Source: Desulfobacterales bacterium (GTDB lineage: Bacteria > Desulfobacterota > Desulfobacteria > Desulfobacterales > UBA5616). Taken from it: a stretch of DNA of 64,000 nucleotides. Where the stretch lies: the NCBI GenBank assembly GCA_046483495.1, contig JAWODC010000092.1:128153-192152 (forward strand), given 5' to 3'. Positions 4,597 through 60,461 of this stretch are shown here, piece after piece. Within the stretch, counting starts at the first letter, position 1. Each line of letters opens with the position of its first letter. Position numbers and translations under genes: made by a program. The notes below the pieces were generated by a model, which worked only from the letters and a program-made list of their open reading frames with translations, was not told the origin of the DNA and ran no database searches.

Positions 4597-4606
4597 GACG
4601 GATTCC

Positions 4607-8895: not shown

Positions 8896-8899
8896 GATG

Positions 8900-10849: not shown

Positions 10850-10923
10850 GTCCTTTATCTTTCTTCCCTTTTCGGGAAAATCAAGTGGTCAATCACCGCA
10901 AACACGGGCTTGACTCATGGCAT

Positions 10924-14280: not shown

Positions 14281-14294
14281 ACTCCGATTTCCGT

Positions 14295-16295
14295 TTAGAG
14301 GTAGTAATCAAAATCTTTCTCCGTTCTGACTTTTCGTCGAATCGCAAAAATATGAGCCGGTATAATCCGGGGATCGAGTTCCACATAATTGCGGTCACCG
14401 TACCAGAGGAAGCGTGCGTCACTCAAAAGATCGTGCATTTGAAAGGATTTTGCCGGATCCAGATGCATTGCGGAAAGCGGGAGATCCACCCAACCGGCAT
14501 GCGTGTGGTGGGGGTCTAAATTAACCACGACAAGGATGGTATTGGACCGGTCGTCGGAACGTTTGCTATAGCAGATCATTTGTTCATTATCCACCGGAAG
14601 AAAGGCCAGACTTCGGTTGTTGTGCAGGGCAGGGTTTTCCTTCCGGATGTGGTTTACCCGGGCGATGAGCTCCTTTAAGCTCATCGGAGAGGAAATATCC
14701 CACGTTTTGGTTTCGTATTTTTCCGAATCGAGGTACTCCTCGCTGCCCGGCTCCTTGGGTTCATTCATGCACAACTCGAAAGCGGGTCCGTAAATGCCGT
14801 AGCTTGCACCCAGTGTGGCGGCCAATACCAGACGGACGATAAAGGCCGCTCTTCCCCCCGTCTGCAGGTATTCGGTCAGAATGTCCGGCGTGTTCGGCCA
14901 GAGATTGGGTCTGAAATAGTCACGAACCTCTGTCCGGGTCAATTCCGTGAAATACTTTTGGATATCATAAGCGGTGTTTCGCCATGTAAAGTAGGTGTAG
15001 GATTGGCTGAATCCAGCCTTCGCCAACCGGTACATGACCTTGGGCCGGGTGAATGCTTCGGACAAAAAGATCGTTTCCGGATACCTGGACCTGACGTTTC
15101 CGATCAGCCATTCCCAAAACGCGAAAGGTTTGGTATGCGGGTTATCCACACGGAAAATCCGTATCCCCTGCTCTATCCAATAGAACGTAACCCGCATCAG
15201 TTCCCGGGCCAGTTCCCGCCATCGGTCCGATTCGAAATCCAATGGATAAATATCCTCATATTTTTTTGGGGGATTTTCCGCGTATTGAATGGAGCCGTCC
15301 GGCCGATGACGAAACCACTCGGGATGTTCACTTACGTAAGGATGATCCGGGGAGCATTGGAATGCCAGGTCCATGGCGATTTCGATCCCGTATTCTTCAG
15401 CCTTTTTGACCAAATTTCTAAAATCCGCCAATGTCCCCAACAAGGGGTGTATTTCCGTGTGGCCGCCCTCACGGACTCCGATGGCCCAGGGGCTCCCCGG
15501 GTCTTCCGGGCCGGCAACAGGAGTGTTGTTTTTCCCTTTCCGATGGGTTCGGCCGATGGGATGGATCGGAGGCAGGTATAAAATGTCGAATCCCATATCC
15601 GCAATATAGGGGAGCCGTTTTTCGCAATCGTCAAAGGTCCCGTGTCGCCGTTCTTCCCCGGCACAGGAACGCGGAAACATTTCATACCAACTGCCGTACA
15701 ACGCCCGTTTGCGCTCGGCCAGGACCAACAGTTCTTTTTCATAAAAGGAGGCTTTTTTTCTGTCGGTGTGTTTTTGCATCAGGTGCAGCAGGCCTTTACC
15801 GAGCGCAAGTGCAATTCGTCCTTTTTGGGGCTTGTCTGAGCGGATATCGCTTGCCCGGCTTCGCAGCCAATCGCCGTCGGATTTGGGTGCCGGATCCGCC
15901 GTTTTTTCGATCAGTGCGGCACCTGTGAGAAGATCGATTTCCACATCCTGGCCGGCGGCTGTTTTTTTGGCCAGATCCCGGCGCCAGGTTTTGAATTCGT
16001 CAATCCATGCGCACAGGGTGTAGACGTAACCCCCGATCTCCTCGATCGAAAAAGCGGCATACCAGCGGTCGTTCAGGAGAAGCCGCAAGGGGGTTTCTTC
16101 CCATTGAACACCGTCTTTCGGGCGATGCATTAAAACGCCGGAAATCAAGTCATGGCCGTCGGTAAAAATATCGGCCGACACCGCCAGTTTTTCACCGAGG
16201 GTTCGCTTAACGGGAAACCGGCCGCCGTCGATTTCGGGTGACACCCTTTCAATGATGACGCGGGGCAAGAAGGTCTCGGTTTGGATGTCAATCAT
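14295..16295 (-). CDS. glgE: Alpha-1,4-glucan:maltose-1-phosphate maltosyltransferase (GlgE)
   Basis: 666 aa. The N-terminus VIIERVSPEIDGGRFPVKRTLGE is typical of GlgE. GH13_3 blocks SWYEMFPRS, DILYLPPIHPIG and IFRVDNPHTKPF are present. Confidence 0.88.
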   Translation of the reverse strand: MIDIQTETFLPRVIIERVSPEIDGGRFPVKRTLGEKLAVSADIFTDGHDLISGVLMHRPKDGVQWEETPLRLLLNDRWYAAFSIEEIGGYVYTLCAWIDEFKTWRRDLAKKTAAGQDVEIDLLTGAALIEKTADPAPKSDGDWLRSRASDIRSDKPQKGRIALALGKGLLHLMQKHTDRKKASFYEKELLVLAERKRALYGSWYEMFPRSCAGEERRHGTFDDCEKRLPYIADMGFDILYLPPIHPIGRTHRKGKNNTPVAGPEDPGSPWAIGVREGGHTEIHPLLGTLADFRNLVKKAEEYGIEIAMDLAFQCSPDHPYVSEHPEWFRHRPDGSIQYAENPPKKYEDIYPLDFESDRWRELARELMRVTFYWIEQGIRIFRVDNPHTKPFAFWEWLIGNVRSRYPETIFLSEAFTRPKVMYRLAKAGFSQSYTYFTWRNTAYDIQKYFTELTRTEVRDYFRPNLWPNTPDILTEYLQTGGRAAFIVRLVLAATLGASYGIYGPAFELCMNEPKEPGSEEYLDSEKYETKTWDISSPMSLKELIARVNHIRKENPALHNNRSLAFLPVDNEQMICYSKRSDDRSNTILVVVNLDPHHTHAGWVDLPLSAMHLDPAKSFQMHDLLSDARFLWYGDRNYVELDPRIIPAHIFAIRRKVRTEKDFDYYL

Positions 16296-16359
16296 AAATC
16301 CGCCCTATTGGATGTGTCGGCGTTGGCATTGTATTGTGTGCGATGGACAACCTCCCGTT

Positions 16360-17904
16360 TCAGACGTAGGGTGAAGCCGGGTAGTTTTGGATGGGCGGCC
16401 GGGGTGCGGCCGGAGCCTTCGTTGCCGGTTTATATTCGACCAGAGGGAAATCCTTTACTTCGTGTATGAATACGGAATTCAGAAAAGCTTCCACCCAATA
16501 GTAAATGTCCTGTCTGCGAATGGCTTTTCTCATCATTTTCATGCGGTATTGGCGCTGGGCCGGCTCCATTTGCGTGGCGGTAAAAAGGGTTTGGGCCACC
16601 GATTCGACATGGTAGGGATTGACCAGCAGCGCGCCCCGTTGAAGCTGGGCGCTGGCGCCTGCGAATTCGCTCAAGATAAGCACCCCGTTTTCTTCCACGT
16701 TTGAGGCGCAGTATTCTTTTGCCACAAGGTTCATACCGTCCTTCAACGGTGTGATGAATGCGACATCCGAAGCGCGGTAAAATGCCAACAGCTCTTGCCG
16801 GTCAATGGAGCGGAACATGTAATGGATCGGCGTCCACCCGGGGCGTCCGTATCGCCCGTTTATTTCACTGATCTTGCGTTCGAGCTGTTCTTTCAGCTCC
16901 AGGTACTTGGGAATCGTAACCCGGCTGGGAACGACGAGCTGAAGCAGTGACATGTTGCCCCGAAGTTGCGGGTACCTGTCGAGGGCCATTTCAAAAGCCG
17001 CCAGTCTTTCCGGAATTCCCTTGGTGTAATCCAGACGATCGATTCCCAGAACGATGTGTTCGACATCGAGTTCTTCTTGAACTTCCCTGACCCTGTCTTC
17101 CACTTCCCGCTTTTCCGCGTTTCTGGCAAATTCATCGAAATCGATGCTGATGGGGAAATTGCCGATGCGGATTTCCCGATCGTTCACCTGGGCGGTGATC
17201 ACCTTGCCCCGCTCCCGGATGACGACATCCCGAAAAAGGGCGCGGATGCACCGAATAAAATTCCTCCGGTCCCGCATGGTCTGAAATCCGACCAAATCGT
17301 AGGACAGCAGGCCTTCCATGACTTCGTACCGCCAGGGCAGTTTGAAAAAGAGATCCGGAGAAGGGAAGGGGATGTGAAGGAAAAATCCGATTTTGGAGGT
17401 CACTCCCATCTCCCGAAGGTTTTTGCCGGCCATCATCAAATGATAGTCATGGATCCAGATATGGTCGCCGTTGATGATGCTTTCATGCGTGCTTTGTGCA
17501 AATTTACGGTTTACCGCCTGATAAGCCTTCCAGTAGGAGGGGTCGAAATTGCAGCGGGTCTGAAGATCATGAAACAGGGGCCATATAATTTCATTGGCGA
17601 ATCCATAATAAAAACTGTCCACTTCCTCGGGCGTGAGCATCACCGGTTCGAAGCTGTACCCGGTGCCGTCCGTCGTTTCATTGAGCAGTTTTTTAATGAG
17701 GTGTTTTTTGCCTTTGGTCGTTCCCGGCCATCCGATCCATAATCCTCCCCGGTTCCGAAGAACCGGCACCATGGCTGTCACCAATCCGCCGGAGCCGTCT
17801 TTTACCTCAAATCTTCCCGAGTCATCCTGCGATATTGTCGAAGGCAGCCTGTTCGATATGATGATGAGACGATTTTTTGCCGTTTTTTCAGTGATTAGAC
17901 TCAT
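16360..17904 (-). CDS. otsA: Alpha,alpha-trehalose-phosphate synthase (GT20)
   Basis: 514 aa. [38 protein letters not shown] and [14 protein letters not shown] are OtsA/GT20 blocks. A Pro-rich tail of about 40 aa follows. Confidence 0.88.
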
Positions 17905-21810: not shown

Positions 21811-23178
21811 ATGCCGACAAAAAGACTAGTCGTAATCGGAGGCAATGCGGCCGGAATGGGGGCTGCCTCCCAGGCGAGGCGTCAGCAGAACGATTTGATC
21901 ATAAAGGCATTCGAAAAGACGCCCTATCCGTCCTATTCACCATGAGGCATTCCGTACCTGATCGGCCGGGTAGTCGATAATCCTGAAAAATTGATCGTCC
22001 GAACCCCCAGAGTTTTCAGGGAAAAACAAAATATTGAAACCTACGTATCCCATGAGGTCCGGGAAATCGATATCGAGCGTCAGCGAATCCGCGTCCAGCG
22101 CAAGGAGGATGGAAAAACCTGGTGGGAGCCTTACGATCACCTGATGATCGCAACGGGGTCCGTTCCCATACGCATTCCGGTGCAAGGATCGGATTCAGAA
22201 GGCATTTTCGGCGTCAACACCTATGAAAGCGGAATTAAGCTGAATCGGTTCCTGGATGACGCGTCGGCTAAGAACGCCGTGGTGATCGGCGGCGGTTATA
22301 TCGGACTGGAAATGGCCGAGAATCTGATCAAAAGGGGACTGAGCGTTTCATTGGTCGAATTGAACAAAGAGGTGATGTCAACGCTGGATCCGGACATGGG
22401 AAAACTCGTATCCGATGCGCTGATCGAGATCGGTGTGAAACTTTTTCGGGAGGAACGGTTCGAGGGTTTTGAAACGGACAACGGGCGCGTCAGGGCGGTG
22501 GTCACCGATAAACGGACATTGCCCGCCGATGTTGTTGTACTGGGTATGGGGGTTCGGCCGAATACGGAACTCGCCCAAAAGGCCGGTATCCCCATCGGTC
22601 CGTCAAAGGGGATCAGGGTGAATCCGCTCCTGCAGACGGACGTGGAAAACGTATGGGCGGGAGGGGATTGCGCGGAGTCCATTCACCTGGTCAGCGGCAA
22701 ACCTGTTCATATCCCCCTTGGGACGGTGGCGAACAAACATGGCCGGGTGGCGGGGATCAACATCGGCGGCGGGTATGCCACCTTTCCCGGCGTAGTCGGG
22801 ACGGCTATGAGCAAAATATGTGCGGTCGAGGTCGCCCGAACGGGTCTTGGAGAAAAAGAGGTGCAACGTATCGGGCTGCACTATATCACCTCGGTTACAC
22901 GGACCAGGACACGTGCGGGTTACTACCCGAATGCGGATTCTATTTCAGTAAAATTGATTGCCGAAAAAAACACCGGCAGATTACTCGGTGCCCAAATCGT
23001 CGGCAGAGAAGGGGCTGCCAAACGAATCGATATTCTGGCAACCGCCCTGCATCGAAGAATGAACCTCCAGGAAATTATGGATTTGGACCTGAGTTATGCG
23101 CCTCCGTATTCACCTGTTTGGGACCCGGTGGCATTGGCGGCACGGGTGGCCTTGAAAAAACTTCAGCCCGATACATAA
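21811..23178 (+). CDS. CoA-disulfide reductase / NADH oxidase-family flavoprotein with in-frame UGA (predicted selenocysteine) at 21943-21945
   Basis: Track ORFs 21727..21945 and 21991..23178 share one frame and are separated only by TGA, with no other stop. The joined sequence MPTKRLVVIGGNAAGMGAASQARR...FEKTPYPSYSP-U-GIPYLIGRVV matches the family redox-centre motif S(F/Y)xxC(A/G)(L/I)PY(V/L)IG, with U in place of the Cys. Downstream FAD/NAD(P) motifs VVIGGGYIGLEMAE and AGGDCAE are present. ATG 21811 was chosen as the start. Confidence 0.75.
21955..21972 (+). promoter_or_regulatory. Candidate SECIS-like hairpin downstream of UGA 21943-21945
   Basis: UACCUG-AUCGGC-CGGGUA: 6 bp including one G-U pair, with a 6-nt G-containing loop. 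It begins 9 nt after the UGA. An imperfect lower extension is possible. This is the weakest of the three hairpins. Confidence 0.35.
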
Positions 23179-23261
23179 GGCAACCCGCACCGAGCACCGA
23201 AGCGGGGTCCGGAAATCATCGCGCTTTTGGAAATATCCCCGAAAGCTGAGGGAGGGTATGG

Positions 23262-24022: not shown

Positions 24023-24931
24023 ATGAAGGAACAGGCATTCGATGTCATCATATTGGGAGCCGGACCGGCGGGATTTCAGGCGGCGCTGCATGCGGTGCGC
24101 AGGAAAGCATCGGTTCTTCTGCTTGGCAAGGCCGCAAAAAGCAGCGCCCACGGTTCTCATATCGAAAATTTTTGCTGCATCCACGGCACGTCCGGTACCG
24201 AAATGCTGAAGCTCGCGAGTGAGCAGGCCCGGAAGGCGGGAGCCGTCGTTTCGGATGAGGATGTCATCGATGTGGAAACCGTCGACGGACGATATGCCGT
24301 TTATGGAGAACGCGGCGGAAAATATACGGCCGCGGCAATCGTTCTGGCGATGGGCATTTCACGCAACAGCTTGAAACTTCCCGGAGAAAAGAAGCTGATC
24401 GGCCGCGGTATCAGCTACTGTGTCGATTGCGATGGGCCGCTGTTTAAAAACGAGCCGGTGGCGGTTGTCGGATGCGAAAGTGCAGCAGGGAGCGGCGCGT
24501 TGACTTTGATGTTTTTCACTCCTGAAGTGCACCTGATCTGCGAGGCGCTTCACATGGATGACTATTTGGCGGAGAAAATCAAAAGCAGCGATATCCGGTT
24601 GCACGAAGGCCGAAAAGTGACGCATATCACCGGTGAAACGGAACTCGCCGGGATCGCATTGGATGATGGGACAAAATTGGACATCAAAGGAATGTTCATC
24701 GAACTCGGGGCAAAGGGCGCCGTCGGATTGGCCGGAAAGCTGGGCGTCAGGATGGATGAAGAAAATATGAAGTATGTAGCCGTCACGAGAAAGCAGGAAA
24801 CGAATCTTCCCGGCGTATATGCCGCCGGTGATATATGCGGGCCGCCATGGCAGGTAGCCAAAGCTGTAGGGGAGGGGTGCGTTGCCGGGCTTGAAGCGGC
24901 GGCGTATGCACGAAAGCCTAAATCCGGATAA
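24023..24931 (+). CDS. Thioredoxin-reductase-like FAD disulfide oxidoreductase lacking canonical NADPH motifs
   Basis: 302 aa. The FAD motif DVIILGAGPAGFQAA, the redox CxxC (SYCVDCDG, compare CATCDG) and the C-terminal GVYAAGDI are present. The second dinucleotide motif reads VVGCESAAGSGA instead of GGGxSA, and no HRRxxxR is present. Confidence 0.75.
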   Translation: MKEQAFDVIILGAGPAGFQAALHAVRRKASVLLLGKAAKSSAHGSHIENFCCIHGTSGTEMLKLASEQARKAGAVVSDEDVIDVETVDGRYAVYGERGGKYTAAAIVLAMGISRNSLKLPGEKKLIGRGISYCVDCDGPLFKNEPVAVVGCESAAGSGALTLMFFTPEVHLICEALHMDDYLAEKIKSSDIRLHEGRKVTHITGETELAGIALDDGTKLDIKGMFIELGAKGAVGLAGKLGVRMDEENMKYVAVTRKQETNLPGVYAAGDICGPPWQVAKAVGEGCVAGLEAAAYARKPKSG

Positions 24932-25552: not shown

Positions 25553-26338
25553 TCAGGATTTCTGGCACGCGGGGCAATAGTAGGCGGACCTGCCTGAAAT
25601 TTTTATACGATGAACCTTACCATTGCATCCGGGGCAGTCGGCATCTTCCTTCCGATGGGAAATCAGAAATTTTTCAGGCATTTTTTCCGGATCGGCACGG
25701 CGCTCGATCGCCGTTTCCAGAACCGATTTCATGGACTCGTACAGCTTTCGGGATTCTTTTTTATCGAGGCCGTTTGTTTCCTTTTGGGGGTGTATCCGTG
25801 CCTGAAAGCAAACCTCGTCCGAATACACATTTCCAATTCCGCACAACGTATTCTGCTTCATTAAAAACGATTTGACCCCTGAGCGGTTTTCGGCCAACAT
25901 TTTTTGAAAAGCATCGTATGTCACGTCCAGTGCATCGACACCCAGTTTCTTTTTTTTCACGAACGTGTCGATGTCTTTTGTCCACCCGATTTTCCCCAAT
26001 TTCCGGGTACAGTCATAGGCCAGGTGGTTTTCGCCGTCAAAATCAATCAGCAGCCGTACGTGCTTGGGCATGCCGTCTTCCGCTTGAACAAACGTGACAA
26101 ACCCGGTCATGCCGAAATGAAGGGTCATCCACTCCCCTTTTTTCAACCGCGCCAGGGCATATTTCCCATAGCGGGCGGTTTCCTCGAATGCGTTGCCCTT
26201 CAATTCGGATTGAATTTTGGTTTTGGAAACGGACTCGAGAATTCCCGCATCGAGTACTCGGCACCGTTCGATGGTCCTGTTAAGGGAGGTGTCGTCGATG
26301 ATTCGTCTGAAGATCTCAACGTCCGGCAGTTCAGGCAT
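25553..26338 (-). CDS. Fpg/Nei-family DNA glycosylase/AP lyase
   Basis: 261 aa. The N-terminal MPELPDVE carries the catalytic Pro2/Glu3. An H2TH region is present, as is the C-terminal zinc finger CPGCNGKVHRIKISGRSAYYCPACQ. Confidence 0.85.
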   Translation of the reverse strand: MPELPDVEIFRRIIDDTSLNRTIERCRVLDAGILESVSKTKIQSELKGNAFEETARYGKYALARLKKGEWMTLHFGMTGFVTFVQAEDGMPKHVRLLIDFDGENHLAYDCTRKLGKIGWTKDIDTFVKKKKLGVDALDVTYDAFQKMLAENRSGVKSFLMKQNTLCGIGNVYSDEVCFQARIHPQKETNGLDKKESRKLYESMKSVLETAIERRADPEKMPEKFLISHRKEDADCPGCNGKVHRIKISGRSAYYCPACQKS

Positions 26339-46336: not shown

Positions 46337-46861
46337 ATGAATCTAATGAACAAAAAATCATGGTCCCCCTATTGGGTAGGGGGTGCCATCGGCATTCTGG
46401 AGACGGTGGCGATGCTTACCGCAAAAAGGCCGTTGGGCATTACGACCGCTTTTGAAAACGCCGCAGCCATGGCGGCCGGCAAGCTGGCACCGAAAAAATT
46501 GGGGATCGAGGAATATCGACACCAGAGTGGCCAGACGCCGAAAATCGACTGGGAGACGGGGCTCGTCGGCGGGGTTATGCTTGGAAGTCTGATCAGTGCC
46601 CGCTTGTCCGAAGACTCGAAACCGCCTGAAGTGCCGACTGCCTGGCAGGAGAAAGTCGGCCGGTCAAAGGCGCTCCGATTTGCGGCCGCCACCGGCGGAG
46701 GCGCGCTCATGATGATCGGCGCCCGAATGGCAAAGGGGTGCACGAGCGGTCACGGCATCAGCGGGACGATGCAATTCGCAGCTTCCAGTTGGCTCTTCGA
46801 TCCGATTATCTTTGCATCCGGGGCGGTGGTGTCCAGGGCGCTGTTCGGGAGGAAAACATGA
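46337..46861 (+). CDS. YeeE/YedE-family sulfur-compound transporter component (first half-type protein)
   Basis: 174 aa membrane protein. PLGITTAF and MAKGCTSGHGISG are the YeeE/YedE Cys-containing motifs. Confidence 0.75.
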   Translation: MNLMNKKSWSPYWVGGAIGILETVAMLTAKRPLGITTAFENAAAMAAGKLAPKKLGIEEYRHQSGQTPKIDWETGLVGGVMLGSLISARLSEDSKPPEVPTAWQEKVGRSKALRFAAATGGGALMMIGARMAKGCTSGHGISGTMQFAASSWLFDPIIFASGAVVSRALFGRKT

Positions 46862-47418
46862 CACGAGAATCCATTGGAAGACTTTTGCTCGGGTTCGGGA
46901 CAGGCGCGGCATTCGGTTTTCTGTTGCATAAGGGGCGGGCTTCGGAATATGAGGTCATTTCCGGTCAATTGCTCGCAACCGACGCATCCGTCGTTAAGAT
47001 AATGGCTACCGCGTCCGCTGTCGGCGCCTTTGGAACCCAACTTCTCAACCGGCATGAAAAGGCGGATATCAAAATCAAGCCGCTCAATGCCGGGGGCGTT
47101 GCCGTTGGGGGGACACTTTTCGGGATAGGAATGGCGCTCCTGGGGTATTGTCCGGGGACCGATATGGCGGCCTTGGGTGCCGGCCATACGGATGCGGCCT
47201 TCGGCGCGGTCGGAATGTTCGGCGGTGCACTGGCCTTTGTGGGGCTTTACCCCTATATAAAACCGGTGATCGAAAAAGGTGCCGTCGGAAAACGAACACT
47301 GCCGGAGCTCACCGGCACCTCTCCCTGGCTTTGGGTTTCCGGAATCGCGGCTGCAGCGGCGGTGACTGCCGGGTTTTTGGAGAAAAACGGTTCCCGCCGC
47401 CAATCCGCTGTCGAGTAG
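46858..47418 (+). CDS. YeeE/YedE-family sulfur-compound transporter component (second half-type protein)
   Basis: ATG 46858 overlaps the upstream stop (ATGA). GFGTGAAFGFLLHKG and LLGYCPGTDMAALG are YeeE/YedE-type motifs. Confidence 0.75.
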   Translation: MTRESIGRLLLGFGTGAAFGFLLHKGRASEYEVISGQLLATDASVVKIMATASAVGAFGTQLLNRHEKADIKIKPLNAGGVAVGGTLFGIGMALLGYCPGTDMAALGAGHTDAAFGAVGMFGGALAFVGLYPYIKPVIEKGAVGKRTLPELTGTSPWLWVSGIAAAAAVTAGFLEKNGSRRQSAVE

Positions 47419-47486
47419 GGACACGACGATAAGCCGGACCATTCAGTTCTAAAGATAACCATGCATTTCCCGAAAGGAGGCAAGAC

Positions 47487-48869
47487 ATGGGAAAATTGTT
47501 TCTTGAAACCATACGTTCGGAGGGCCTGTCCCACCTGTCCTATATTATCGGCCATGGCGGGAAAGCGGCTGTCATCGATCCACGTCGTGACAGCCGGGTT
47601 TACGTCGATATCGCATATGAAAAAGGGGCATCGATCACCCATATTTTCGAAACCCACCGGAACGAAGACTACGTGATCGGTTCACTCGATTTGGCCGGGC
47701 GGACAGGTGCGGAAATTTATCACAGCCATGCCACCGAATTCGACTATGGAAATGCGGTATCCGAGGGAAGCCGTTTTCAGTTGGGCAGCCTCGAATTCAG
47801 GGTGCTGGAGACGCCGGGGCATACCTACGACAGCCTGTCGCTTGCCCTTGTCGACAAGAGTTTCGGGGAGGACCCTATTGCAGTCTTTACCGGCGATGCC
47901 CTGTTTATCGGAGACGTGGGCAGAACCGATTTTTTCCCCGACCGCAAGGAGGAGGTCGCCGGCCTGCTGTATGACAGCATTTTTAATAAACTACTGCCCC
48001 TTGGCGACTATGTTATTCTATATCCGGCCCATGGCGCGGGATCGGTCTGTGGCGCCGGTATGGCCGATCGCGAGTTTTCGACACTCGGATTTGAACGGCG
48101 GCATAATCCCGTGCTGCAGAAAACGGACAGGGAGGCGTTCATCCGGTACAAGGTCAACGAGCATCATTACAAGCCCCCGTATTTCAGCCAAATGGAAAAA
48201 TTCAACCGTGAAGGGGCGCCGTCCCTTTGCGAAATTCCGAAACCGCCGCCGTTGGGGCCGTCGGCATTCGAAGAGCGAATGAATAACGGCATGATTGCCG
48301 TCGATACACGAAGCGCGGAAGCCTTTGCCGGCTCCTTTATCCCCGGAAGCATCGCACTGCCGCTTGAAATGATCCCGGCATTTGCGGGATATTTTATTCC
48401 CTACGACCGGGAAATCGGTCTGATCACGTCGGGATATGAGCATGTGGACAGGGCCGTGCGCTTCCTGATCCGCATGGGCTATGATACCATCGCCGGCCAT
48501 CTCGATGAAGGGCTTCATTCCTGGCAGGTCAGCGGACGGAAATACGACCGGATTCCCGCCGTTCACGCCAAGGAGCTTGTCCGGCGTATTCAATCCAATG
48601 AAGACTTCACGCTTTTGGATGTTCGGCGGATTGACGAGGTTCAAAAGGGCCACCTGCCGGGAGCCGTTCACATCTATCTTGGAGATCTCCCGGACCGGCT
48701 GAACGATGTTCCGAAAGAGCGGCCCGTCACCACTTTTTGCGGGAGCGGTCAGCGGGCGATCATCGCCGCGTCCATTCTCAAGCAAAACGGATTTGAGCTG
48801 GTCGAGGACAGTTTAGGATCCATGGCGGCGTGCAACGTCATCGGGTGTCCGATTATAACCAAGGAATAA
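47487..48869 (+). CDS. MBL-fold hydrolase fused to two rhodanese domains (persulfide-dioxygenase-like architecture)
   Basis: 460 aa. The MBL core carries the variant metal motif ETHRNEDY and the block TPGHTYDS. The first rhodanese domain lacks Cys. The second has the active loop FCGSGQRA. Confidence 0.8.
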   Translation: MGKLFLETIRSEGLSHLSYIIGHGGKAAVIDPRRDSRVYVDIAYEKGASITHIFETHRNEDYVIGSLDLAGRTGAEIYHSHATEFDYGNAVSEGSRFQLGSLEFRVLETPGHTYDSLSLALVDKSFGEDPIAVFTGDALFIGDVGRTDFFPDRKEEVAGLLYDSIFNKLLPLGDYVILYPAHGAGSVCGAGMADREFSTLGFERRHNPVLQKTDREAFIRYKVNEHHYKPPYFSQMEKFNREGAPSLCEIPKPPPLGPSAFEERMNNGMIAVDTRSAEAFAGSFIPGSIALPLEMIPAFAGYFIPYDREIGLITSGYEHVDRAVRFLIRMGYDTIAGHLDEGLHSWQVSGRKYDRIPAVHAKELVRRIQSNEDFTLLDVRRIDEVQKGHLPGAVHIYLGDLPDRLNDVPKERPVTTFCGSGQRAIIAASILKQNGFELVEDSLGSMAACNVIGCPIITKE

Positions 48870-52974: not shown

Positions 52975-55284
52975 TTAGAGATTCAGGGCGGCCCTGCCGA
53001 TCACCAGATCCTGCATGTCTTGCGGCAGTTCCACGAATCGAGCACTGAAGCCTGCAACCCGCACCAGCAAATCGGGGTATTTTTCGGGGTTTTTTCTGGC
53101 ATCCATGAGCATCTCCTGCGATAGGAGGTTGCACATCAGATGGGTCCCCCCCATGGAGACCAGGTATGTTTTAAAGAGATTGGCCAGCATTTCGGTTTCC
53201 CCGTCGATGGTCAATGTCAAGGAACCGGTCCAGCTTCTTGCGTGATCCAATTTTGCCGCTGATCGAAAAACGTCGGTCGGACCGCCGTGAAAGGCGCTTT
53301 TTGCCGGGGCGATCCCGTCACTGAGCGGCTCGTGTGCCCTTCGTCCGTCGGCCGTTGCCGCCGTGGCTTCTCCGAAGTTCAAGGCGAATGTCAGGGAGTG
53401 GAAACCGGGAATGGAAGGCCCCGGACGGTCGGGCAATATACGGCATCGATGTTTATCCGCTTCATCGAGCCAGAAGTCAGCCACTTCCAATGCCAGATCA
53501 TCGACATAGTCGTCATCGTTCCCCCATTTGGGCGCATCGTGGAGTTTTTGTCTTAACCCGGCGTATCCTTCGAAATTCCGGTCCAAGGCGTTCAGCAAAT
53601 CGGAAATGGAACTGCTCTTTTCATCGAAGATCACCTTTTTTATCGCCGCCAATGAATCGGCGGCGGTGCCCAGCCCCACGGCATGCATGCCGATCCAATT
53701 GTCTCGTCCGCCGCCGGCCAAAACATCGAGCCCCTTTTCCATACACCCCCGCACGTTGATCGACGCATACGGAAGACATGTTTCATTGCGGAGAACGGCA
53801 TCAGTAAACTCGGATTCCGTGTTCAACATCGTGATGCCGTAGGCAATCTGCTTTTTGAAGGCATCCATTACATGGTCAACATCACGAAACGTCCGGGGAT
53901 CACCCGTTGAAAGCCCGATCCGTTTGCCCGTCAGCCGGTCGACACCGTCATTAAGGGCGAGGTCCAGCATTTTTACCAGATTGACCCAGGCACTGTGATC
54001 CTTCCGGGCATATGTCGTGAAATGCTGACAGCCGTCGATCGAATAATCGCGGGCTTCTTTCAATGGTATGCCGCGGCGCAGCAAGGCCGGAATAACGGCA
54101 TCGTCGCTGTTCAGTTGGGGCCGTCCTCCGCTGACCCGCATAACGTCGATGGCGCGCTTGAGAAGGTGATCCGGCGTCTTCTTGTTGATTCTGAGTCCGA
54201 ACTGCGGCTTGGGAATGCGCACAAGTTCGAGAGCGTCGAGCAGCATATACGTCATTTCATTGGTGGCATCCTGCCCGTGTTCGGTCTGACGTCCGATGGT
54301 GATGCCGTTGACATGCGAATCGAGATCGCTGATCGGGGAGCTGTTCTCGCCGAATTTAAACAGAAAATGGGCCAGCAGTTCAACGGCTTTTTCCCGGGTG
54401 ATTACGCCTTGGTCACGATCGGTTTTGTAATAAGGATAAAGGATAGCATCCAATCCGCCCATGGATATGGAATCCCCTCCGGATTCGATGCTGCCTACAA
54501 GAAAGGCGAACCATGAGGCCTGAAGGGCTTCATAAAAAGAGCGGGCCGGGTTGGAAGGCACGTGTTCACATATGCGTGCGATTTCTTCCAGCTCCTCTTT
54601 GCGCCGATGCTCCGCGTGACGGGATGTTTCCCGCGCCAATCGAGCATAGCGCAAGGAAAAATCGGCAACCGCATCGCAGACGATTGCTATTGCCTTGTAG
54701 AAAAACTGCTTGTAGACGGCATCCGTCGATTCGAGATCGATGCTTTCAAGCTTTACTTCCGCATCCTGCTTGATGCCGGAAAATCCCTTGGCGAGAATCG
54801 TCGGCAGATCGATAAGATAGCGCCCCCTTCGATTGCCCGCAACACCCATGTGCCAATACCACAAAGAAGCCTCTCTTCCGGCTTTCACGTTTGCCGGCAA
54901 ATGCGCACACAGCCTGTCCGTGCAGTTTTTTCCATTCCAGTAAGCCATCAGGGATTCGATTTCCTGTCTGGCTTGATCCGTTATGACAGGCATCAATGCG
55001 GGATTGACGTGAAACCCCATCTGGTCGGGTGTGGCGCCGAATTCCGGCCACAGGGGAATTCCGCGAAAGAAGCTTGCCCAGTGTCCGAGCAACCGTTCGT
55101 CATCCAAAATCCAAACGCTCATGCAGTCAAGAACAGCCTCGAGCATTCGGGCCGCCCGAATGACGCCCGGTTCGGAAGCATAACGCTTGTGGGCATCCAT
55201 GGCAATCAGCGCCCTTTGGGTGCAGAGCTGGGGCTTTTTTTCCCGGTAATGCTGCAGTAAGGAAAATATTCCGCTGTTCATCAT
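52975..55284 (-). CDS. Glycyl radical enzyme (PFL2/glycerol-dehydratase-like clade), substrate unknown
   Basis: The C-terminal glycyl radical motif is LVRVAGFSARFVEL. Family blocks include GGLDAILYPYYKTD. The Cys loop reads DYSIDGCQHFTT. The start was chosen at MMNSG (ATG 55282-55284) after GGAGG; the track ORF extends to 55701 without support. Confidence 0.88.
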   Translation of the reverse strand: MMNSGIFSLLQHYREKKPQLCTQRALIAMDAHKRYASEPGVIRAARMLEAVLDCMSVWILDDERLLGHWASFFRGIPLWPEFGATPDQMGFHVNPALMPVITDQARQEIESLMAYWNGKNCTDRLCAHLPANVKAGREASLWYWHMGVAGNRRGRYLIDLPTILAKGFSGIKQDAEVKLESIDLESTDAVYKQFFYKAIAIVCDAVADFSLRYARLARETSRHAEHRRKEELEEIARICEHVPSNPARSFYEALQASWFAFLVGSIESGGDSISMGGLDAILYPYYKTDRDQGVITREKAVELLAHFLFKFGENSSPISDLDSHVNGITIGRQTEHGQDATNEMTYMLLDALELVRIPKPQFGLRINKKTPDHLLKRAIDVMRVSGGRPQLNSDDAVIPALLRRGIPLKEARDYSIDGCQHFTTYARKDHSAWVNLVKMLDLALNDGVDRLTGKRIGLSTGDPRTFRDVDHVMDAFKKQIAYGITMLNTESEFTDAVLRNETCLPYASINVRGCMEKGLDVLAGGGRDNWIGMHAVGLGTAADSLAAIKKVIFDEKSSSISDLLNALDRNFEGYAGLRQKLHDAPKWGNDDDYVDDLALEVADFWLDEADKHRCRILPDRPGPSIPGFHSLTFALNFGEATAATADGRRAHEPLSDGIAPAKSAFHGGPTDVFRSAAKLDHARSWTGSLTLTIDGETEMLANLFKTYLVSMGGTHLMCNLLSQEMLMDARKNPEKYPDLLVRVAGFSARFVELPQDMQDLVIGRAALNL

Positions 55285-55658
55285 CCGGCCTCCTTTTGTT
55301 GGGGGATATCGAACAGTAAACGTTATGGGGATCTGCATTACAGAATACGTTTTTAAGAGAGATGTCTTATTAGTCACATTATCATCACTTGCCGCCTCGA
55401 TCAAATCCTTTTCTACGTTCAGCACGTGGTATGCTCGATAATCGGCTTTTCGGCATTCGGCATGAACGGCGGTTCGAATTAAAGGAGTGTTGACAAGAGC
55501 ACCCGGAAAAGTGGTATTAAACCGAAAACGGTTGGACGGCGCCGCTCTCTTTCCCGTTGACGTTCGTTCCATGGCGCCGGCGAATGGCCCAAACCGCTTT
55601 GCCTTCGATGAGAAAGCCGAATCATTTCTTATAACGCGTGTAAAAAAGGAGTGTGGTG

Positions 55659-56471
55659 ATGCAGGTAAATGATAAAGTGATCGTCGTGACCGGCGGCGCA
55701 AACGGGATCGGCGAGTCCCTCTGCCGGCGATTCGTTAAAGAAGGTGCACGTGCGGTTGTGGCCGCCGACCTCGACGAGGAACGGGTGAAAGCCCTGGCGG
55801 ATGAATTGGGCATCCTGGGGATGAAAACGGACGTGGCCGACGAGTCGGACATCGTTCACCTGGTTCAAACAACCGAAAAACAGTTCGGTCCGATCGACCT
55901 TTTTTGTTCGAACGCCGGCATCACTTCATCCGACGCGCCCGGTTGGACCGCCGCTTCCGCAGAGAACGAAATCTGGCAAAAATCCTGGGAAATTCATGTC
56001 ATGGCCCATGTCTACGCCGCAAGGGCGGTGCTGCCGGGAATGATTGCACGGAAGAGCGGATATCTTCTGAATACATCTTCGGCAGCCGGTCTTCTCAACC
56101 AGATCGGAAGTGCTCCATATTCTACGACCAAGCATGCCGCTATCGGTTTTGCCGAAGCGTTGGCCATCACCCATGGGGATGACGGCATCAAGGTCTCGGT
56201 GCTGTGCCCCCAAGCGGTCCGGACCCGCATGATTGCGGGCGCCGAGGAAGGGTCGGCCGCGGTAGACGGCATTCTGGAGCCCGAAGAGGTGGCCGATTGC
56301 GTGATTCGGGGGCTTGCTGAAGAAACGTTTCTCATTCTGCCCCATCCGGAGGTGAAAACGTACTACCAGCGAAAAGCCTCCGACTACGATCGCTGGATCA
56401 ACGGAATGCTTCGGTTTGCCCGAAAAATCCTTCCCTACATGAAAGGGCGCAGCGAAAACACGCGTGAATAG
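55659..56471 (+). CDS. Short-chain dehydrogenase/reductase (classical SDR)
   Basis: VIVVTGGANGIGESL (TGxxxGIG), NAGI and the catalytic YSTTKHA (YxxxK) are present. ATG 55659 lies 6 nt after AAAGGAG. Confidence 0.85.
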   Translation: MQVNDKVIVVTGGANGIGESLCRRFVKEGARAVVAADLDEERVKALADELGILGMKTDVADESDIVHLVQTTEKQFGPIDLFCSNAGITSSDAPGWTAASAENEIWQKSWEIHVMAHVYAARAVLPGMIARKSGYLLNTSSAAGLLNQIGSAPYSTTKHAAIGFAEALAITHGDDGIKVSVLCPQAVRTRMIAGAEEGSAAVDGILEPEEVADCVIRGLAEETFLILPHPEVKTYYQRKASDYDRWINGMLRFARKILPYMKGRSENTRE

Positions 56472-56559: not shown

Positions 56560-57363
56560 TTATCTGCGAACCAGGTTTTCCAGCTTTTTTCTGCCATCGG
56601 CACTCAATCCCAGGAGGTCGATTTCGCGCGACAACTGATCGGCGGTTCCGTTTCCGCCCGCATATCCGTTGAGGTGCGCCACGGCCGTAGAGTCAATAAA
56701 ATCCATATGATCCGGATAGATATTCGCCATTTCGCTATGCAGGACGCGATGGGATTTCAGCAGGTACTTTTGGTGATAATCCTCGGCCGTCGTAAATGAG
56801 CGGACCGGCAGCACCTCGGTTTTTACGGCACGGCCGAAGTCGTTTTCAACGCCGGTCTTGGAGGCCAGTGCCTGCCGGCGCTGCTCTTCAGTGTGATGGA
56901 AGACAGCCCGCCTATACTGCGGCGAACGGTGCTGCCGGTTCGGATTGTGGCTTTTCCAGAAAATGTCCAGTAGTTGGTCATAACTGATGCGCTGAGGATT
57001 ATAGTCCACCTGAACGGTTTCGGTATGGTCCCCCATATGGTAATACGTCGGCGAATCGATCGAGCCGCCGGCATAGCCCACACGTGTTCTCACGACCCCC
57101 TCGATGATCCCGAACCGGGATTCGATTCCCCAGAATCAACCAAGGCCGAAATAGGCCGTTTCAAGGACCTGAGGTACGGCCGCATCGATTGGTGGAAGCT
57201 TCGCCGACTCGGTTTCGAGACGATATGCAAGGTTCATGGAACGCTCCTTTTCATCAAAAGCAAGATCCGCCTGTGCCGTTGTCGGCGTTACGGCAACGAG
57301 CAGCGTCGATATGATGCCGAATAATAACCCCATAAGGTCATGTGCAACGTTTCTTCGTGTCAT
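56560..57363 (-). CDS. msrA: Exported peptide-methionine (S)-S-oxide reductase MsrA with in-frame UGA (predicted selenocysteine) at 57136-57138
   Basis: Track ORFs 57136..57369 and 56560..57093 share one frame and are separated only by TGA. The joined sequence ...ETAYFGLG-U-FWGIESRFGIIEGVVRTRVGYAGG matches the MsrA motif G-C-F-W-G..E..F....GV..T.VGYAGG, with U at the catalytic Cys. The N-terminal signal MTRRNVAHDLMGLLFGIISTLLVAVTPTTAQA is present. ATG 57361-57363 overlaps the receiver-gene stop (ATGA); GTG 57369 is the alternative start. Confidence 0.8.
57101..57125 (-). promoter_or_regulatory. Candidate SECIS hairpin downstream of UGA 57136-57138
   Basis: Minus-strand RNA: UCGA-AUCCCG-GUU-CGGGAU-CA-UCGA. 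The upper stem is 6 bp with a GUU apex (or 5 bp with a GGUUC loop), there is a 2-nt bulge, and the lower stem is 4 bp. It begins 10 nt after the UGA. Confidence 0.55.
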
Positions 57364-57830
57364 CTGCACGTCTTTCTTTTGCTGCTTATATCGGAAAGGT
57401 TCGATTGCACCTTTTGTGCAAATTCGATCAACTCATTGAAGCTGCCCGGTTTGGTGACAAAATCCGAGACGCCGAGTTCGGAACAGTACATCCGGTCCTG
57501 TGGTGAATCCGACGTTGTCAATACGATGACGTCCAAATCCTGAAATTCCGGGATCGTTCGGATTTCTTTCAGCGCTTCCCGGCCGTCTTTTCGAGGCATG
57601 TTCAGATCGAGTAAAATGCACAGCGGTTTCGGATGCGAGCCGGTCCCGTTGTTTTTCAAATAGAGATCAAGCCGGTCCACCAACTCTTCACCGTCACCCA
57701 CGAAATGCAGTTCCACGGAAAGCCCGCTCTCCGCGAAAGCCTCCTTGATCAATAATTGATCGTCCGGATCATCTTCAGCGACTAATATCGGATACCGGCC
57801 GAAATCAATGTGTCGTTTTTCCCGGTTCAT
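57360..57830 (-). CDS. Stand-alone response-regulator receiver protein (CheY-like, no output domain)
   Basis: ILVAEDDPDDQLLIKEAF, ILLDLNMPRKDG (phospho-acceptor Asp) and VIVLTTS...KP are present. ATG 57828-57830 overlaps the kinase stop (ATGA). Confidence 0.85.
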   Translation of the reverse strand: MNREKRHIDFGRYPILVAEDDPDDQLLIKEAFAESGLSVELHFVGDGEELVDRLDLYLKNNGTGSHPKPLCILLDLNMPRKDGREALKEIRTIPEFQDLDVIVLTTSDSPQDRMYCSELGVSDFVTKPGSFNELIEFAQKVQSNLSDISSKRKTCR

Positions 57831-59497
57831 TTGTTTTGCCTCCTGGGCAATGTTACGATAAACCGTGCACCTTCTCCAGGCCTGCTTTGGGCCGTGATGG
57901 TACCATTGTGGCGTTCGGCGATCCTTTTGCAAATCGCCAGTCCCATGCCGGTGCCTTCATACTCGCTGCGTCCGTGAAGCCGTTCAAAGGGCAGAAATAT
58001 TCTGTCGAGATATTGCATGTCGAAACCGATGCCGTTATCTTCCACACACAATTGGCAATGTTTGTTCTTGTTTTTTGCCGTACACGAAATTTTGATGTTC
58101 GGCCCCTTGTCTTTTTTGGAATACCTGACCCCATTTGCAATCAGGTTTTGCAGAAGTTGGGCAATTTGAACGCGGTCTGCTTCTATTTCGGGCAGGTCAC
58201 CGATTTCGACAACCGATTTTGTGAAATCATACGGCAACGCCAAATCGTTGACCACTTCTGATGCAATCGTTTTCAAATCAATGCGTTCAAAAGGATTGGG
58301 CTTCGTGCTGATACGGGAATATGCGAGCAATGCCCTTATCAAGTTCTGCATTCGTTCGGCTGATTTTACCATGCGTAATAGATAATCCCTGGCGGTTTCG
58401 GGCAATTCCTCGGCAAATTTGTATTCGAGCAGGTTGCCGAAGGACTGGATCTTGCGCAGGGGTTCCTGCAGGTCATGGGAAGTGATGGAGGCAAAATTCT
58501 GCAAGTCCCGGTTCCGTGCTTCAAGCAGATCGATATAGTGATCGATTTCTCTTTCGGCTGCCTTGCGATCTGCGATGTCGATACCGATGCCGATATATGT
58601 TCCATCCGAAAGCCGAATATTCGCCCAGGAGCTTTCCAGCGTCTTGCCCTCTGCAACATGCATGGTGATATCTTTCCAGCCGGGCGCTGCAGCCGCCATA
58701 AAGTCCCATACTTCCCGGCGATACTGCTCGTCAGGGTAGCAGTATTTCATAATATCGATATTCCGTGCTTCTTCGAGGCTCAGGCCGAGCACGCGCTCCG
58801 CTTCGGGATTGATGAAGCTCAAATCGCCGTTGGAATCGTAAAAAACGATCATCACCGGTATATTGTCGATGATTTTTTCGGTTTTTTCTTTTCGGGCCGC
58901 CAGTTCCGCCCTATTTTTTCTAACATCTTTTTGAAGCTCGGCGCGGGACCTGCGAAGTTCCTCCTCCATTTCTTTGGTCTCGGAAATATCCGTCAATGCC
59001 AGGTGGAACCGAACCAATCGACCATCATCAAAATGGGCGCCGATATAAAGACGGACATACAGCACCGCATTCCGGTCCCTCACAATCCGGAGTTCGATCG
59101 ATTCTCTGGCCCCGTTTTTTTTCGAACGGGCGATCTTGTCGATGGCGTGTAAAAACGCCGGCAGGTCTTCCGAAAAGATCAGAACTGAAAATTTCAGTCC
59201 CCTTAGCCGCCGCTCCGGAAGATGAAGAATATCCAGGGCGGCGGCATTGAGCCGCTGTATCACCCCTTTTTCATCCAGGGTGATAAATCCCACGGGAGTG
59301 AACTGGTACAGCTCGGCATAGTCATTGCGGGATGATTCCAGATTTCGAAGAGCGATTTGAAGCTCCTCTTTTTGCTGATCGAGCTCTATCTGATATACCT
59401 CGTGATCATTGGAAACGTCATCGGTTTTTTCTCCGCTCCGGTCAGGAATTGGGTCAGCCATTTTCCGCAACTCGGCATTGCGACGATTTGCGGTCAT
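57827..59497 (-). CDS. PAS-domain sensor histidine kinase (cytoplasmic)
   Basis: An N-terminal coiled-coil is followed by two PAS-like regions, the H-box ITSHDLQEPLRKI, the N-box NLIANGVRYS and the G-boxes DNGIGF/GTGMGLAICK. Start ATG 59495-59497 follows AAGGAGG. Confidence 0.85.
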   Translation of the reverse strand: MTANRRNAELRKMADPIPDRSGEKTDDVSNDHEVYQIELDQQKEELQIALRNLESSRNDYAELYQFTPVGFITLDEKGVIQRLNAAALDILHLPERRLRGLKFSVLIFSEDLPAFLHAIDKIARSKKNGARESIELRIVRDRNAVLYVRLYIGAHFDDGRLVRFHLALTDISETKEMEEELRRSRAELQKDVRKNRAELAARKEKTEKIIDNIPVMIVFYDSNGDLSFINPEAERVLGLSLEEARNIDIMKYCYPDEQYRREVWDFMAAAAPGWKDITMHVAEGKTLESSWANIRLSDGTYIGIGIDIADRKAAEREIDHYIDLLEARNRDLQNFASITSHDLQEPLRKIQSFGNLLEYKFAEELPETARDYLLRMVKSAERMQNLIRALLAYSRISTKPNPFERIDLKTIASEVVNDLALPYDFTKSVVEIGDLPEIEADRVQIAQLLQNLIANGVRYSKKDKGPNIKISCTAKNKNKHCQLCVEDNGIGFDMQYLDRIFLPFERLHGRSEYEGTGMGLAICKRIAERHNGTITAQSRPGEGARFIVTLPRRQNK

Positions 59498-59561: not shown

Positions 59562-60461
59562 TCATTCTATACATTTTTTTTGTTTTGCCGTGAACGCCAT
59601 CATGCGTTCTATGATCTGAAACCAGGGACCGTCGTGGGGCACATCATGGCCCATGCCGTCGATGATCATAAGTTCGGCATCCGGAATGGCGGCTGCAATA
59701 TCATGGCTCGCATCCACCGGTACGATGGGGTCCTCGGTGCCGTGGATGACAAGCGCGGGCACCGTTACCGAGGCCAAAGCCGCCTTTCGGCTGCCTGCCG
59801 TTATGACCGCTGCCAGATTTCGTGACGTTCCCTCGGGATAATAGCCCCGGTCAAACGCCCGAGCGGCCAAATCGCGGTGCCACGGCTCATCGAATGGAAA
59901 ACCGGAGCCCGCCAGGATCTTGAAATCACGCACAAGCCTCTCGACAAAGGCGTCTTTTTCGTCGGGAATCGGTTCGAAAAAGATGTTCATCGCTTCGGGA
60001 TCGGGGCCGGGAAGACCGGGGTCGCCGGATGATCCGTAAATCGGAATCAGGCTCAATGTTCTTGCCGGATACCGAACCGCGAAATCCATAGCGATGTTCG
60101 CTCCCATGGACATCCCGCAAATATGAGCCTTTTCGATACCCAGTGCATCCAGAAGACCGGCGGCATCATCCACCATATCATTCAACGTATAGGCCGTATT
60201 CGCGGATTTGCCCTGCATCAGGGCCTTCATGATCGCCTCCATATCCGGTTCACCCGCGTCGTCGAACCGTGTCGACAGGCCGGTGTCTCGGTTGTCATAG
60301 CGAATCACGAAAAGGCCGCTTTCCGCCAGCCTTCTGCAAAGCGGCTCGTCCCAGTATATCAACTGGCATCCGAGACCGATGGTCAGCAGCAGTGCGGGAT
60401 CGGATGGGGCTCCATAGGTTTCATATTCGATACGAATACCGTTGACCCTTGTGTTTGGCAT
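59562..60461 (-). CDS. Alpha/beta-fold hydrolase
   Basis: 299 aa. The nucleophile elbow HICGMSMGANIA (GxSxG), the C-terminal GMGHDVPH (catalytic His region) and the N-terminal LLLTIGLG oxyanion region are present. Confidence 0.8.
   Translation of the reverse strand: MPNTRVNGIRIEYETYGAPSDPALLLTIGLGCQLIYWDEPLCRRLAESGLFVIRYDNRDTGLSTRFDDAGEPDMEAIMKALMQGKSANTAYTLNDMVDDAAGLLDALGIEKAHICGMSMGANIAMDFAVRYPARTLSLIPIYGSSGDPGLPGPDPEAMNIFFEPIPDEKDAFVERLVRDFKILAGSGFPFDEPWHRDLAARAFDRGYYPEGTSRNLAAVITAGSRKAALASVTVPALVIHGTEDPIVPVDASHDIAAAIPDAELMIIDGMGHDVPHDGPWFQIIERMMAFTAKQKKCIE

Follow-up and report, generated by a model that had tools for sequence, protein, structure and literature searches.

Methionine sulfoxide reductases of the A type (MsrA) that carry selenocysteine (Sec) in a GUFWG/H motif are among the established prokaryotic selenoproteins and have also been recorded in a deltaproteobacterial worm symbiont (PMC13188914, PMC1976440). 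An experimentally verified representative is CoMsrA of Clostridium (Alkaliphilus) oremlandii OhILAs, a 209-residue enzyme that contains Sec without any other cysteine (the '1-Cys type'), possesses a C-terminal helical domain, and cannot be reduced by thioredoxin, being regenerated by glutaredoxin (PMC4479559). The helical domain of the selenoprotein MsrAs has a dedicated family, PF20939, in Pfam. Here we describe an msrA gene with an internal TGA codon from a 64,000-nt stretch of the Desulfobacterales contig JAWODC010000092.1, which we term the window and to whose full length all coordinates without a prefix refer. Judged by its sequence, this gene is a new, mis-annotated member of the known '1-Cys/1-Sec' subfamily of selenoproteins exemplified by CoMsrA. 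An earlier note on this DNA, made from its letters alone, had treated a Sec-containing MsrA as an unusual enzyme in its own right; this view does not hold, as the family is already known and one of its members has been verified by experiment. The features of msrA and its product are as follows:

57363..56560, minus strand: msrA, 267 codons, precursor of a 1-Sec selenoprotein MsrA (translation; PMSR and TIGR00401 matches)
57268..57363, minus strand: predicted signal peptide, residues 1-32, with cleavage after A-Q-A (reading and hydropathy)
56749..57159, minus strand: PMSR catalytic domain, residues 69-205 (Pfam PF01625)
57138-57136, minus strand: UGA codon 76, read as Sec, at the catalytic Cys position of the G-C-F-W-G motif (translation, relatives, CoMsrA alignment)
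56563..56748, minus strand: C-terminal region (residues 206-267), the counterpart of the helical domain usually seen in selenoprotein MsrAs (CoMsrA alignment reaching residue 265)
56562-56560, minus strand: stop codon TAA of msrA

The minus-strand translation of the 267-codon frame contains a single internal in-frame TGA, at 57138-57136, flanked by ...PPIDAAVPQVLETAYFGLG-*-FWGIESRFGIIEGVVRTRVGYAGG..., with the upstream side ending in ETAYFGLG. Domain searches, which were run with Cys substituted for the internal stop, recovered the PMSR domain with an E-value of 7e-42 (143.7 bits against a cutoff of 23.7, residues 69-205), and the product also scores 134.8 bits against the NCBI equivalog model TIGR00401 msrA, whose cutoff is 108.1. 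Its best relatives by sequence in the PDB are the structures of the C. oremlandii MsrA (4U66, 4LWJ-4LWM and 7C13; E = 2e-50), and the phmmer alignment with CoMsrA runs without a gap from residue 65 to 265 of the msrA product at 41% identity over 201 residues. Like CoMsrA, the product has Sec at the catalytic GxFWG position and no other cysteine (0 Cys and one Sec in 267 residues), and beyond its PMSR domain lies a C-terminal region aligning with the CoMsrA helical domain. Unlike CoMsrA, which lacks a leader and is aligned from its residue 5, it starts with an extension of 64 residues that includes a predicted signal peptide; nor is a glutaredoxin-like protein, the kind of partner that regenerates the clostridial enzyme, encoded near the msrA of the window. 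The elements that the earlier note had read at this locus, namely the Sec-type MsrA with its leader, a hairpin past the TGA, and a kinase and a receiver gene chained to msrA, were all recovered by direct reading, translation, Pfam searches and folding.

The case for Sec at codon 76 was examined across the 80 closest genomic msrA loci, with one genome per species. The codon is TGA in 77 of these 80 loci and TGT or TGC in two, and the loci span Desulfobacterota, Chloroflexota, Nitrospirota, Planctomycetota, Firmicutes, Actinomycetota, Acidobacteriota, Synergistota and other phyla. Such conservation of a TGA is, across this set, far beyond chance, and the peptide upstream of it (PPID...ETATFxxG) is kept in frame among the related loci. 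Protein searches returned hundreds of entries named 'MsrA' of about 160-190 residues that start just past the TGA position, together with a few full-length calls with W at this position and genuine Cys forms. The alignment with both Sec and Cys forms of MsrA that had been proposed as a check bears out the earlier identification of the TGA column with the catalytic Cys: the column is Cys in the non-Sec homologues, and codon 76 aligns with the catalytic Cys16 of the CoMsrA structures, which were obtained with a Sec-to-Cys replacement (PMC4479559).

Downstream of the TGA lies a predicted selenocysteine insertion sequence (SECIS) with the following parts:

57125..57101, minus strand: SECIS hairpin, predicted from folding and comparison with relatives
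57125-57122 / 57104-57101, minus strand: lower stem, 4 bp
57121-57116 / 57112-57107, minus strand: upper stem, 6 bp
57115-57113, minus strand: apex G-U-U
57106-57105, minus strand: 2-nt bulge on the 3' side

The hairpin begins 10 nt past the UGA and folds at -10 kcal/mol. When 78 sequences were aligned without gaps (A1), the RNAalifold consensus consisted of the 6-bp upper stem, pairing columns 18-23 with 27-32, and the apex G24-U25-U26 showed no variation in any of the 78. Compensatory changes occur at three of the six core pairs, i.e. 18-32 (CG 33, AU 18, UG 6, UA 4), 19-31 (UA 49, GC 12) and 23-27 (GC 55, AU 9), the last of which combines an Arg(CGG)-to-Gln(CAG) replacement with a synonymous UUC-to-UUU change in the following codon. 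The covariation score of 0.220 exceeds that of all slid registers and compares with 0.097 in shuffled alignments, none of 500 of which scored as high. Synonymous codon choice is frozen within the stem (Arg CGG 53/53, Gly GGG 76/77, Ser UCC 50/50); the Gly codon four positions past the UGA, which lies outside the stem, is GGA, GGC, GGG and GGT in 23, 22, 15 and 16 cases, respectively. For every pair of the lower stem, 15 to 19 of the 19 Desulfobacterales-like sequences preserve the pairing, and five of six Cys-form homologues no longer have the apex G. The hairpin that had been singled out from the letters, with its 4 + 6 bp, 2-nt bulge and GUU apex, emerges from this covariation and codon conservation as a conserved SECIS, and has the form that a SelB-binding bacterial element would be expected to take. 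In the SECIS of E. coli fdhF the spacing is 11 nt and the loop is of the GGUC type with an essential G and U. As in such bacterial elements, the hairpin described here lies within the coding region just 3' of the UGA, its loop begins with an invariant G-U and its stem is held by covariation; unlike that of fdhF, it has a GUU tri-loop (or GGUUC penta-loop) as its apex, and in this clade carries a 2-nt 3' bulge as against the single bulged U of fdhF. At the SECIS position, two of the Cys-form homologues (L085:1205-1264 and L086:1205-1264) have retained a perfectly paired hairpin of about 11-12 bp, with a CUU in place of the GUU apex; it resembles a fossil SECIS that has outlived a recent conversion of Sec to Cys.

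The leader of the window protein comprises an n-region MTRRNVAHD, an h-region LMGLLFGIISTLLVAV whose Kyte-Doolittle hydropathy averages 1.98 over 19 residues, and a c-region TPTTAQA, after which the sequence continues with DLAF. Leaders were judged by eye and by hydropathy, and on this basis the segment displays the features of a signal peptidase I (SPase I) substrate: a charged n-region, an h-region of at least 10 residues and small residues at -3 and -1. An N-terminal hydrophobic segment is present in 65 of the 77 loci with a TGA (~84%; hereafter the Sec-MsrA loci); at least 26 of the 77 carry a lipobox-like motif, and about ten have no leader. These counts agree with the export signal read earlier at the N-terminus, and point to export as the norm in this Sec-MsrA clade. 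The six closest relatives of the window msrA (L001-L006) bear lipoprotein-type leaders, the leaders of the closest relatives combining KKR with a lipobox (…LMGC, …IVGC, …LGAC). A canonical twin-arginine signal (…NRRSFMKLLG…) precedes the Sec-MsrA in two other members of the clade (L036 and L052, Syntrophorhabdaceae / UBA6106). The export route thus seems to vary within a single enzyme clade. No description of an exported or periplasmic bacterial Sec-MsrA was found in the literature searched, which is not proof of novelty.

Extracytoplasmic MsrAs as such are familiar from Neisseria PilB/MsrAB and from Streptococcus pneumoniae MsrAB2 with CcdA/Etrx, which are Cys-based and have fused or adjacent thioredoxin-like reductants. 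The window enzyme resembles both in having an MsrA catalytic domain that a signal or lipoprotein leader would place outside the cytoplasm, and differs from them in having Sec and no Cys and in the lack of a thioredoxin-like or CcdA/DsbD gene in its neighborhood. Clustering of the open reading frames (ORFs) within 4 kb of msrA in the 77 loci brought out no thioredoxin- or CcdA-type partner; the largest cluster consists of ORFs antisense to msrA itself, and the sole recurrent real neighbor is a leader-bearing MsrB (SelR), encoded at eight loci. In the latter respect some members of the clade are like known extracytoplasmic Msr systems. In four related genomes of Desulfosarcina species (L003-L006) a convergent gene for a sulfite-oxidase-family molybdoenzyme (Oxidored_molyb + Mo-co_dimer, 347 residues, no obvious leader) lies on the opposite strand about 0.6-1.8 kb downstream of the Sec-msrA; L005 is from the cultivated Desulfosarcina alkanivorans PL12 (NZ_AP021874.1 4,807,902-4,820,705).

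On the 5' side msrA adjoins a kinase and a receiver gene, upstream of which is a hydrolase gene:

59562..60461, minus strand: alpha/beta hydrolase (Pfam Abhydrolase_1), 64 nt upstream of the kinase gene
57827..59497, minus strand: soluble histidine kinase, PAS-PAS-HisKA-HATPase_c, 556 residues (Pfam)
57830-57827, minus strand: ATGA overlap of the kinase stop TGA with the receiver start
57360..57830, minus strand: single-domain response regulator of the Rcp1/RcpA/RcpB type, 156 residues (PF00072 only)
57363-57360, minus strand: ATGA overlap of the receiver stop TGA with the msrA start

The kinase gene begins with the ATG at 59497, ahead of which stands AAGGAGG. The kinase, which combines two PAS domains with HisKA and HATPase_c as had been noted before, is 100% identical to a protein from an NCBI metagenome-assembled genome (MAG) of Desulfobacterales and has no close orthologue otherwise, the next best match being 62% identical over 72% of its length. 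A pattern search found in it H-box-like (SHDLQEP) and G-box-like (DNGIGF, GTGMGL) strings, and in the receiver the signature-like strings EDD at 19, LLDLNMP at 73, LTTS at 104 and TKP at 126. The receiver had earlier been regarded as an oddity for lacking an output domain. Its best PDB matches by sequence (5TE9, RphyB, Rcp1, RcpA and RcpB, 1e-17 to 4e-20) assign it to a common single-domain class, and homologues of the kinase are labelled by JGI as members of the 'sensor kinase Cph1' family. The pair is thus reminiscent of Cph1/Rcp1-type pairs; unlike Cph1, the window kinase lacks a phytochrome (GAF/PHY) module and has only the two PAS domains N-terminal to HisKA, so that the pair is, from its domain composition, not a phytochrome system but merely one of the Rcp1 regulator class. 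Given the two ATGA overlaps, kinase, receiver and msrA are most likely co-transcribed and probably translationally coupled. No terminator-like site was found in the 64-nt gap between hydrolase and kinase, and it is possible that the hydrolase gene is the first gene of this transcription unit.

Two alternatives to the above picture of msrA concern its own sequence. One is that the TGA is a genuine stop, msrA being a pseudogene or split gene, or a gene from which only a downstream fragment of 177-188 residues is made. It can appeal to the annotation of the corresponding NCBI MAG, which has just a 188-residue product (P0001, window 57126-56560, 99% identical) that begins with a non-canonical ATC start just past the TGA, and to the fact that no Sec machinery is found in the window. 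Such a fragment would lack the catalytic residue, however, and the hairpin beyond the TGA covaries. The occurrence of TGA at the identical codon in 77 of 80 loci across phyla, with the upstream peptide conserved in frame, in effect rules out a pseudogene, a sequencing error and a real stop, and the orthologous C. oremlandii enzyme is a proven selenoprotein (PMC4479559); we hence regard this alternative as extremely improbable. Decoding of the TGA as Trp, as printed in the metagenomic gene calls P0002, P0005, P0017 and P0064 (GLGWFWG), was considered and rejected: the kinase and receiver genes at this very locus end in TGA, and the column is Cys in the non-Sec homologues. Truncation in the manner of P0001, to about 160-195 residues, affects many of the closest database relatives as well, and mis-annotation of the Sec-MsrA family appears to be systematic; the conserved hairpin (A1 columns 18-32, apex GUU) offers a simple signature for correcting such annotations. 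The other alternative, that the window MsrA is a substrate of the twin-arginine translocation (Tat) system exported in folded form, and not of the general secretory (Sec) pathway, goes back to the earlier description of the n-region as twin-arginine-like. The description stands insofar as T-R-R-N-V-A (residues 2-7) fits the loose pattern Z-RR-x-hydrophobic-hydrophobic and T-R-R-N-V-A-H matches the Tat consensus S/T-R-R-x-F-L-K in part, and a few distant clade members have canonical motifs, such as that of L036 given above or KRRAFV in L025. Against it speak the very short n-region, the strongly hydrophobic h-region, the lack of a basic residue in the c-region, and the KKR and lipobox leaders, without a Tat motif, of the closest relatives. 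Nor does MsrA depend on a cofactor for which it would have to fold before being exported. Tat export therefore seems unlikely, and the Sec/SPase I route is the more likely one for the window protein.

The remaining alternative, which concerns the neighboring genes, is that the PAS kinase and the receiver form a dedicated signaling system controlling periplasmic repair of methionine sulfoxide (Met-O) by the Sec-MsrA, by analogy with HprSR and MsrPQ, a comparison drawn in the earlier note. In that E. coli system a sensor in the membrane, HprS, is paired with HprR, a DNA-binding regulator of the OmpR type, and the molybdoenzyme MsrP, together with MsrQ, is what they control. As with the E. coli genes, those in the window are two-component genes adjoining a gene for an extracytoplasmic methionine sulfoxide reductase (with export predicted here); further points in favor of such control are the joining of three same-strand genes by ATGA overlaps, the propensity of PAS domains to sense redox state or O2, and the presence of catalytic and phospho-acceptor motif-like strings in the kinase and receiver. 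However, in none of the 77 Sec-MsrA loci does a kinase or receiver gene lie directly upstream of msrA, and in 17 of the 18 closest, nothing resembling a kinase or receiver gene occurs within 3.5 kb. The few hits at other loci are over a kilobase distant or encoded on the opposite strand, and the kinase-like genes that occur within 4 kb at six of the 77 loci are in no case adjacent. The closest metagenomic relative of the MsrA (L081, 73% identity) likewise has no kinase or receiver neighbor. Conversely, among 80 metagenomic loci with relatives of the receiver, a kinase-like hit is present somewhere in 63 and msrA in none, and a 54%-identical kinase (L082) forms a pair with its receiver, overlapping by 4 nt much as the window pair overlaps by ATGA, that is followed not by msrA but by a convergent gene for an unrelated P-type ATPase. 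The protein architectures also differ from those of HprSR-MsrPQ: the kinase is soluble, with a maximum Kyte-Doolittle value of 1.22 over 19 residues, and in the absence of a transmembrane segment would not sense the periplasm directly; the regulator is receiver-only and has no DNA-binding or other output domain; the reductase is an MsrA; and msrA is part of the same putative operon instead of being a separate target. Hence, the window genes include neither a membrane sensor with periplasmic input nor an OmpR-type regulator, nor do they show a conserved association, and the comparison with HprSR/MsrPQ is not supported. The ATGA overlaps in themselves imply no regulatory relationship, and nothing found here indicates that methionine oxidation is sensed or regulated by the kinase or receiver. 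By these comparisons the conserved unit is the kinase-receiver pair, behind which msrA is a lineage-specific juxtaposition; dedicated control of the reductase appears quite improbable.

We accordingly favor the interpretation, to which we would assign a probability of about 0.8, that msrA encodes a genuine exported Sec-MsrA of the known family, and that its placement downstream of the kinase and receiver genes is confined to this genome or lineage and not part of a conserved regulatory design. Several observations weigh on the other side. The helical-domain model PF20939 (MsrA_helical) scores 16 bits in the msrA product, below its cutoff of 23.7, which the homologues P0012 and P0043 pass. No selA, selB or selD was found among the scanned ORFs of the 64-kb window, and a tRNA search of it returned none, tRNA-Sec included, so that Sec decoding is supported here only indirectly. 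Taken alone, the 25-nt hairpin is not unusual (z = -1.6, with 14 of 200 shuffles folding equally well), and folding of the 76 nt after the UGA is by itself uninformative (z = -0.43); as single-sequence folding was uninformative, comparative analysis was used, and the significance of the hairpin comes from its relatives only. No Rfam match to the hairpin was found, either in the window at the gathering threshold or in 56900-57300 at E up to 10, a null result that says nothing against the hairpin as bacterial SECIS elements are evidently not captured by Rfam. Export is a prediction made from features of the sequence only, and the neighborhood of msrA encodes no extracytoplasmic reductant: thioredoxin-like, CcdA and DsbD genes were not found there. 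Finally, an internal promoter may lie in the receiver gene, and the lack of conservation of the linkage does not prove that a functional link is absent in this organism.

If the favored interpretation is correct, UGA codon 76 would be decoded as Sec and supply the catalytic residue, with SelB and Sec-tRNA(Sec) presumably binding the conserved hairpin at 57125-57101 via its G-U-U apex. The signal peptide with its A-Q-A site would export the enzyme, most likely by the Sec/SPase I route, to the periplasm of this didermic member of the Desulfobacterales. Following the chemistry established in studies of CoMsrA, an external reductant would have to resolve the selenenic acid formed upon reduction of Met-S-O, as no Cys is present in the mature protein to act as an internal resolving residue. 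The gene would be the last in a string consisting of the kinase, the Rcp1-type receiver and msrA, probably coupled, and perhaps headed by the alpha/beta hydrolase gene, and msrA has most likely just landed behind the kinase-receiver pair. A broader proposal, which we offer tentatively and consider somewhat less probable than its negation, is that a large cross-phylum clade of 1-Sec MsrAs in anaerobes, comprising periplasmic, lipoprotein and membrane-anchored enzymes, is exported and needs an as yet unidentified extracytoplasmic reductant, and that its member in the window was captured in a kinase-receiver operon such that its synthesis would follow the signaling module. The need for such a reductant, if the clade is exported, follows from the lack of a resolving Cys and from the recycling of the sole characterized relative by a cytoplasmic glutaredoxin. 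Export would imply selenium-dependent Met-O repair outside the cytoplasm in strict anaerobes. What is mildly novel here would be a clade that is predominantly exported and has no obvious reductant; the kinase and receiver neighborhood adds no new regulatory principle.

The window holds a second gene that bears on the use of Sec in this organism:

21811-23181, plus strand: homologue of NADH oxidase/CoA-disulfide reductase (CoADR), E = 2e-109 to 6RUZ

An in-frame TGA at 21943-21945 in this gene aligns with the active-site Cys in the ...CG(L/I)PY motif of 6RUZ (...YSP-U-GIPY versus ...YGA-C-GLPY), and a 6-bp hairpin (UACCUG/CGGGUA) is located about 10 nt past it; the ORF lists give only the 395-residue part downstream of this TGA. 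'NADH oxidase' is a selenoprotein family listed for the deltaproteobacterial symbiont (PMC1976440). We consider the gene a candidate for a second selenoprotein, which would lend indirect support to Sec usage in the organism. The YeeE/YedE-like ORFs at 46337-47418 were considered as a third recoded gene and discarded, as they look like two ordinary half-size genes. These adjacent 'sulphur transport' ORFs (46337-46861 and 46738-47418) are followed by a metallo-beta-lactamase-rhodanese fusion (47487-48869), all on the plus strand; no recoding signal was seen in the stretch 46337-48869, which may be a sulfur or selenium handling module.

Elsewhere in the window, positions 569-17904 are occupied by a large alpha-glucan/trehalose block, with GH13 enzymes, a GH77 4-alpha-glucanotransferase, a GH57 member, a branching-enzyme-like protein, a TreS-Mak-like fusion of 1118 residues, GlgE and a GT20 trehalose-6-P synthase. 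A thioredoxin-reductase-like gene is found at 24023-24931 and a gene for an Fpg glycosylase at 25553-26338. On the minus strand, 52975-55701 encodes a glycyl-radical enzyme (PFL-like + Gly_radical), whose ORF begins about 140 codons before the domain with a low-complexity Arg-rich stretch, suggesting that its true start is probably further downstream.

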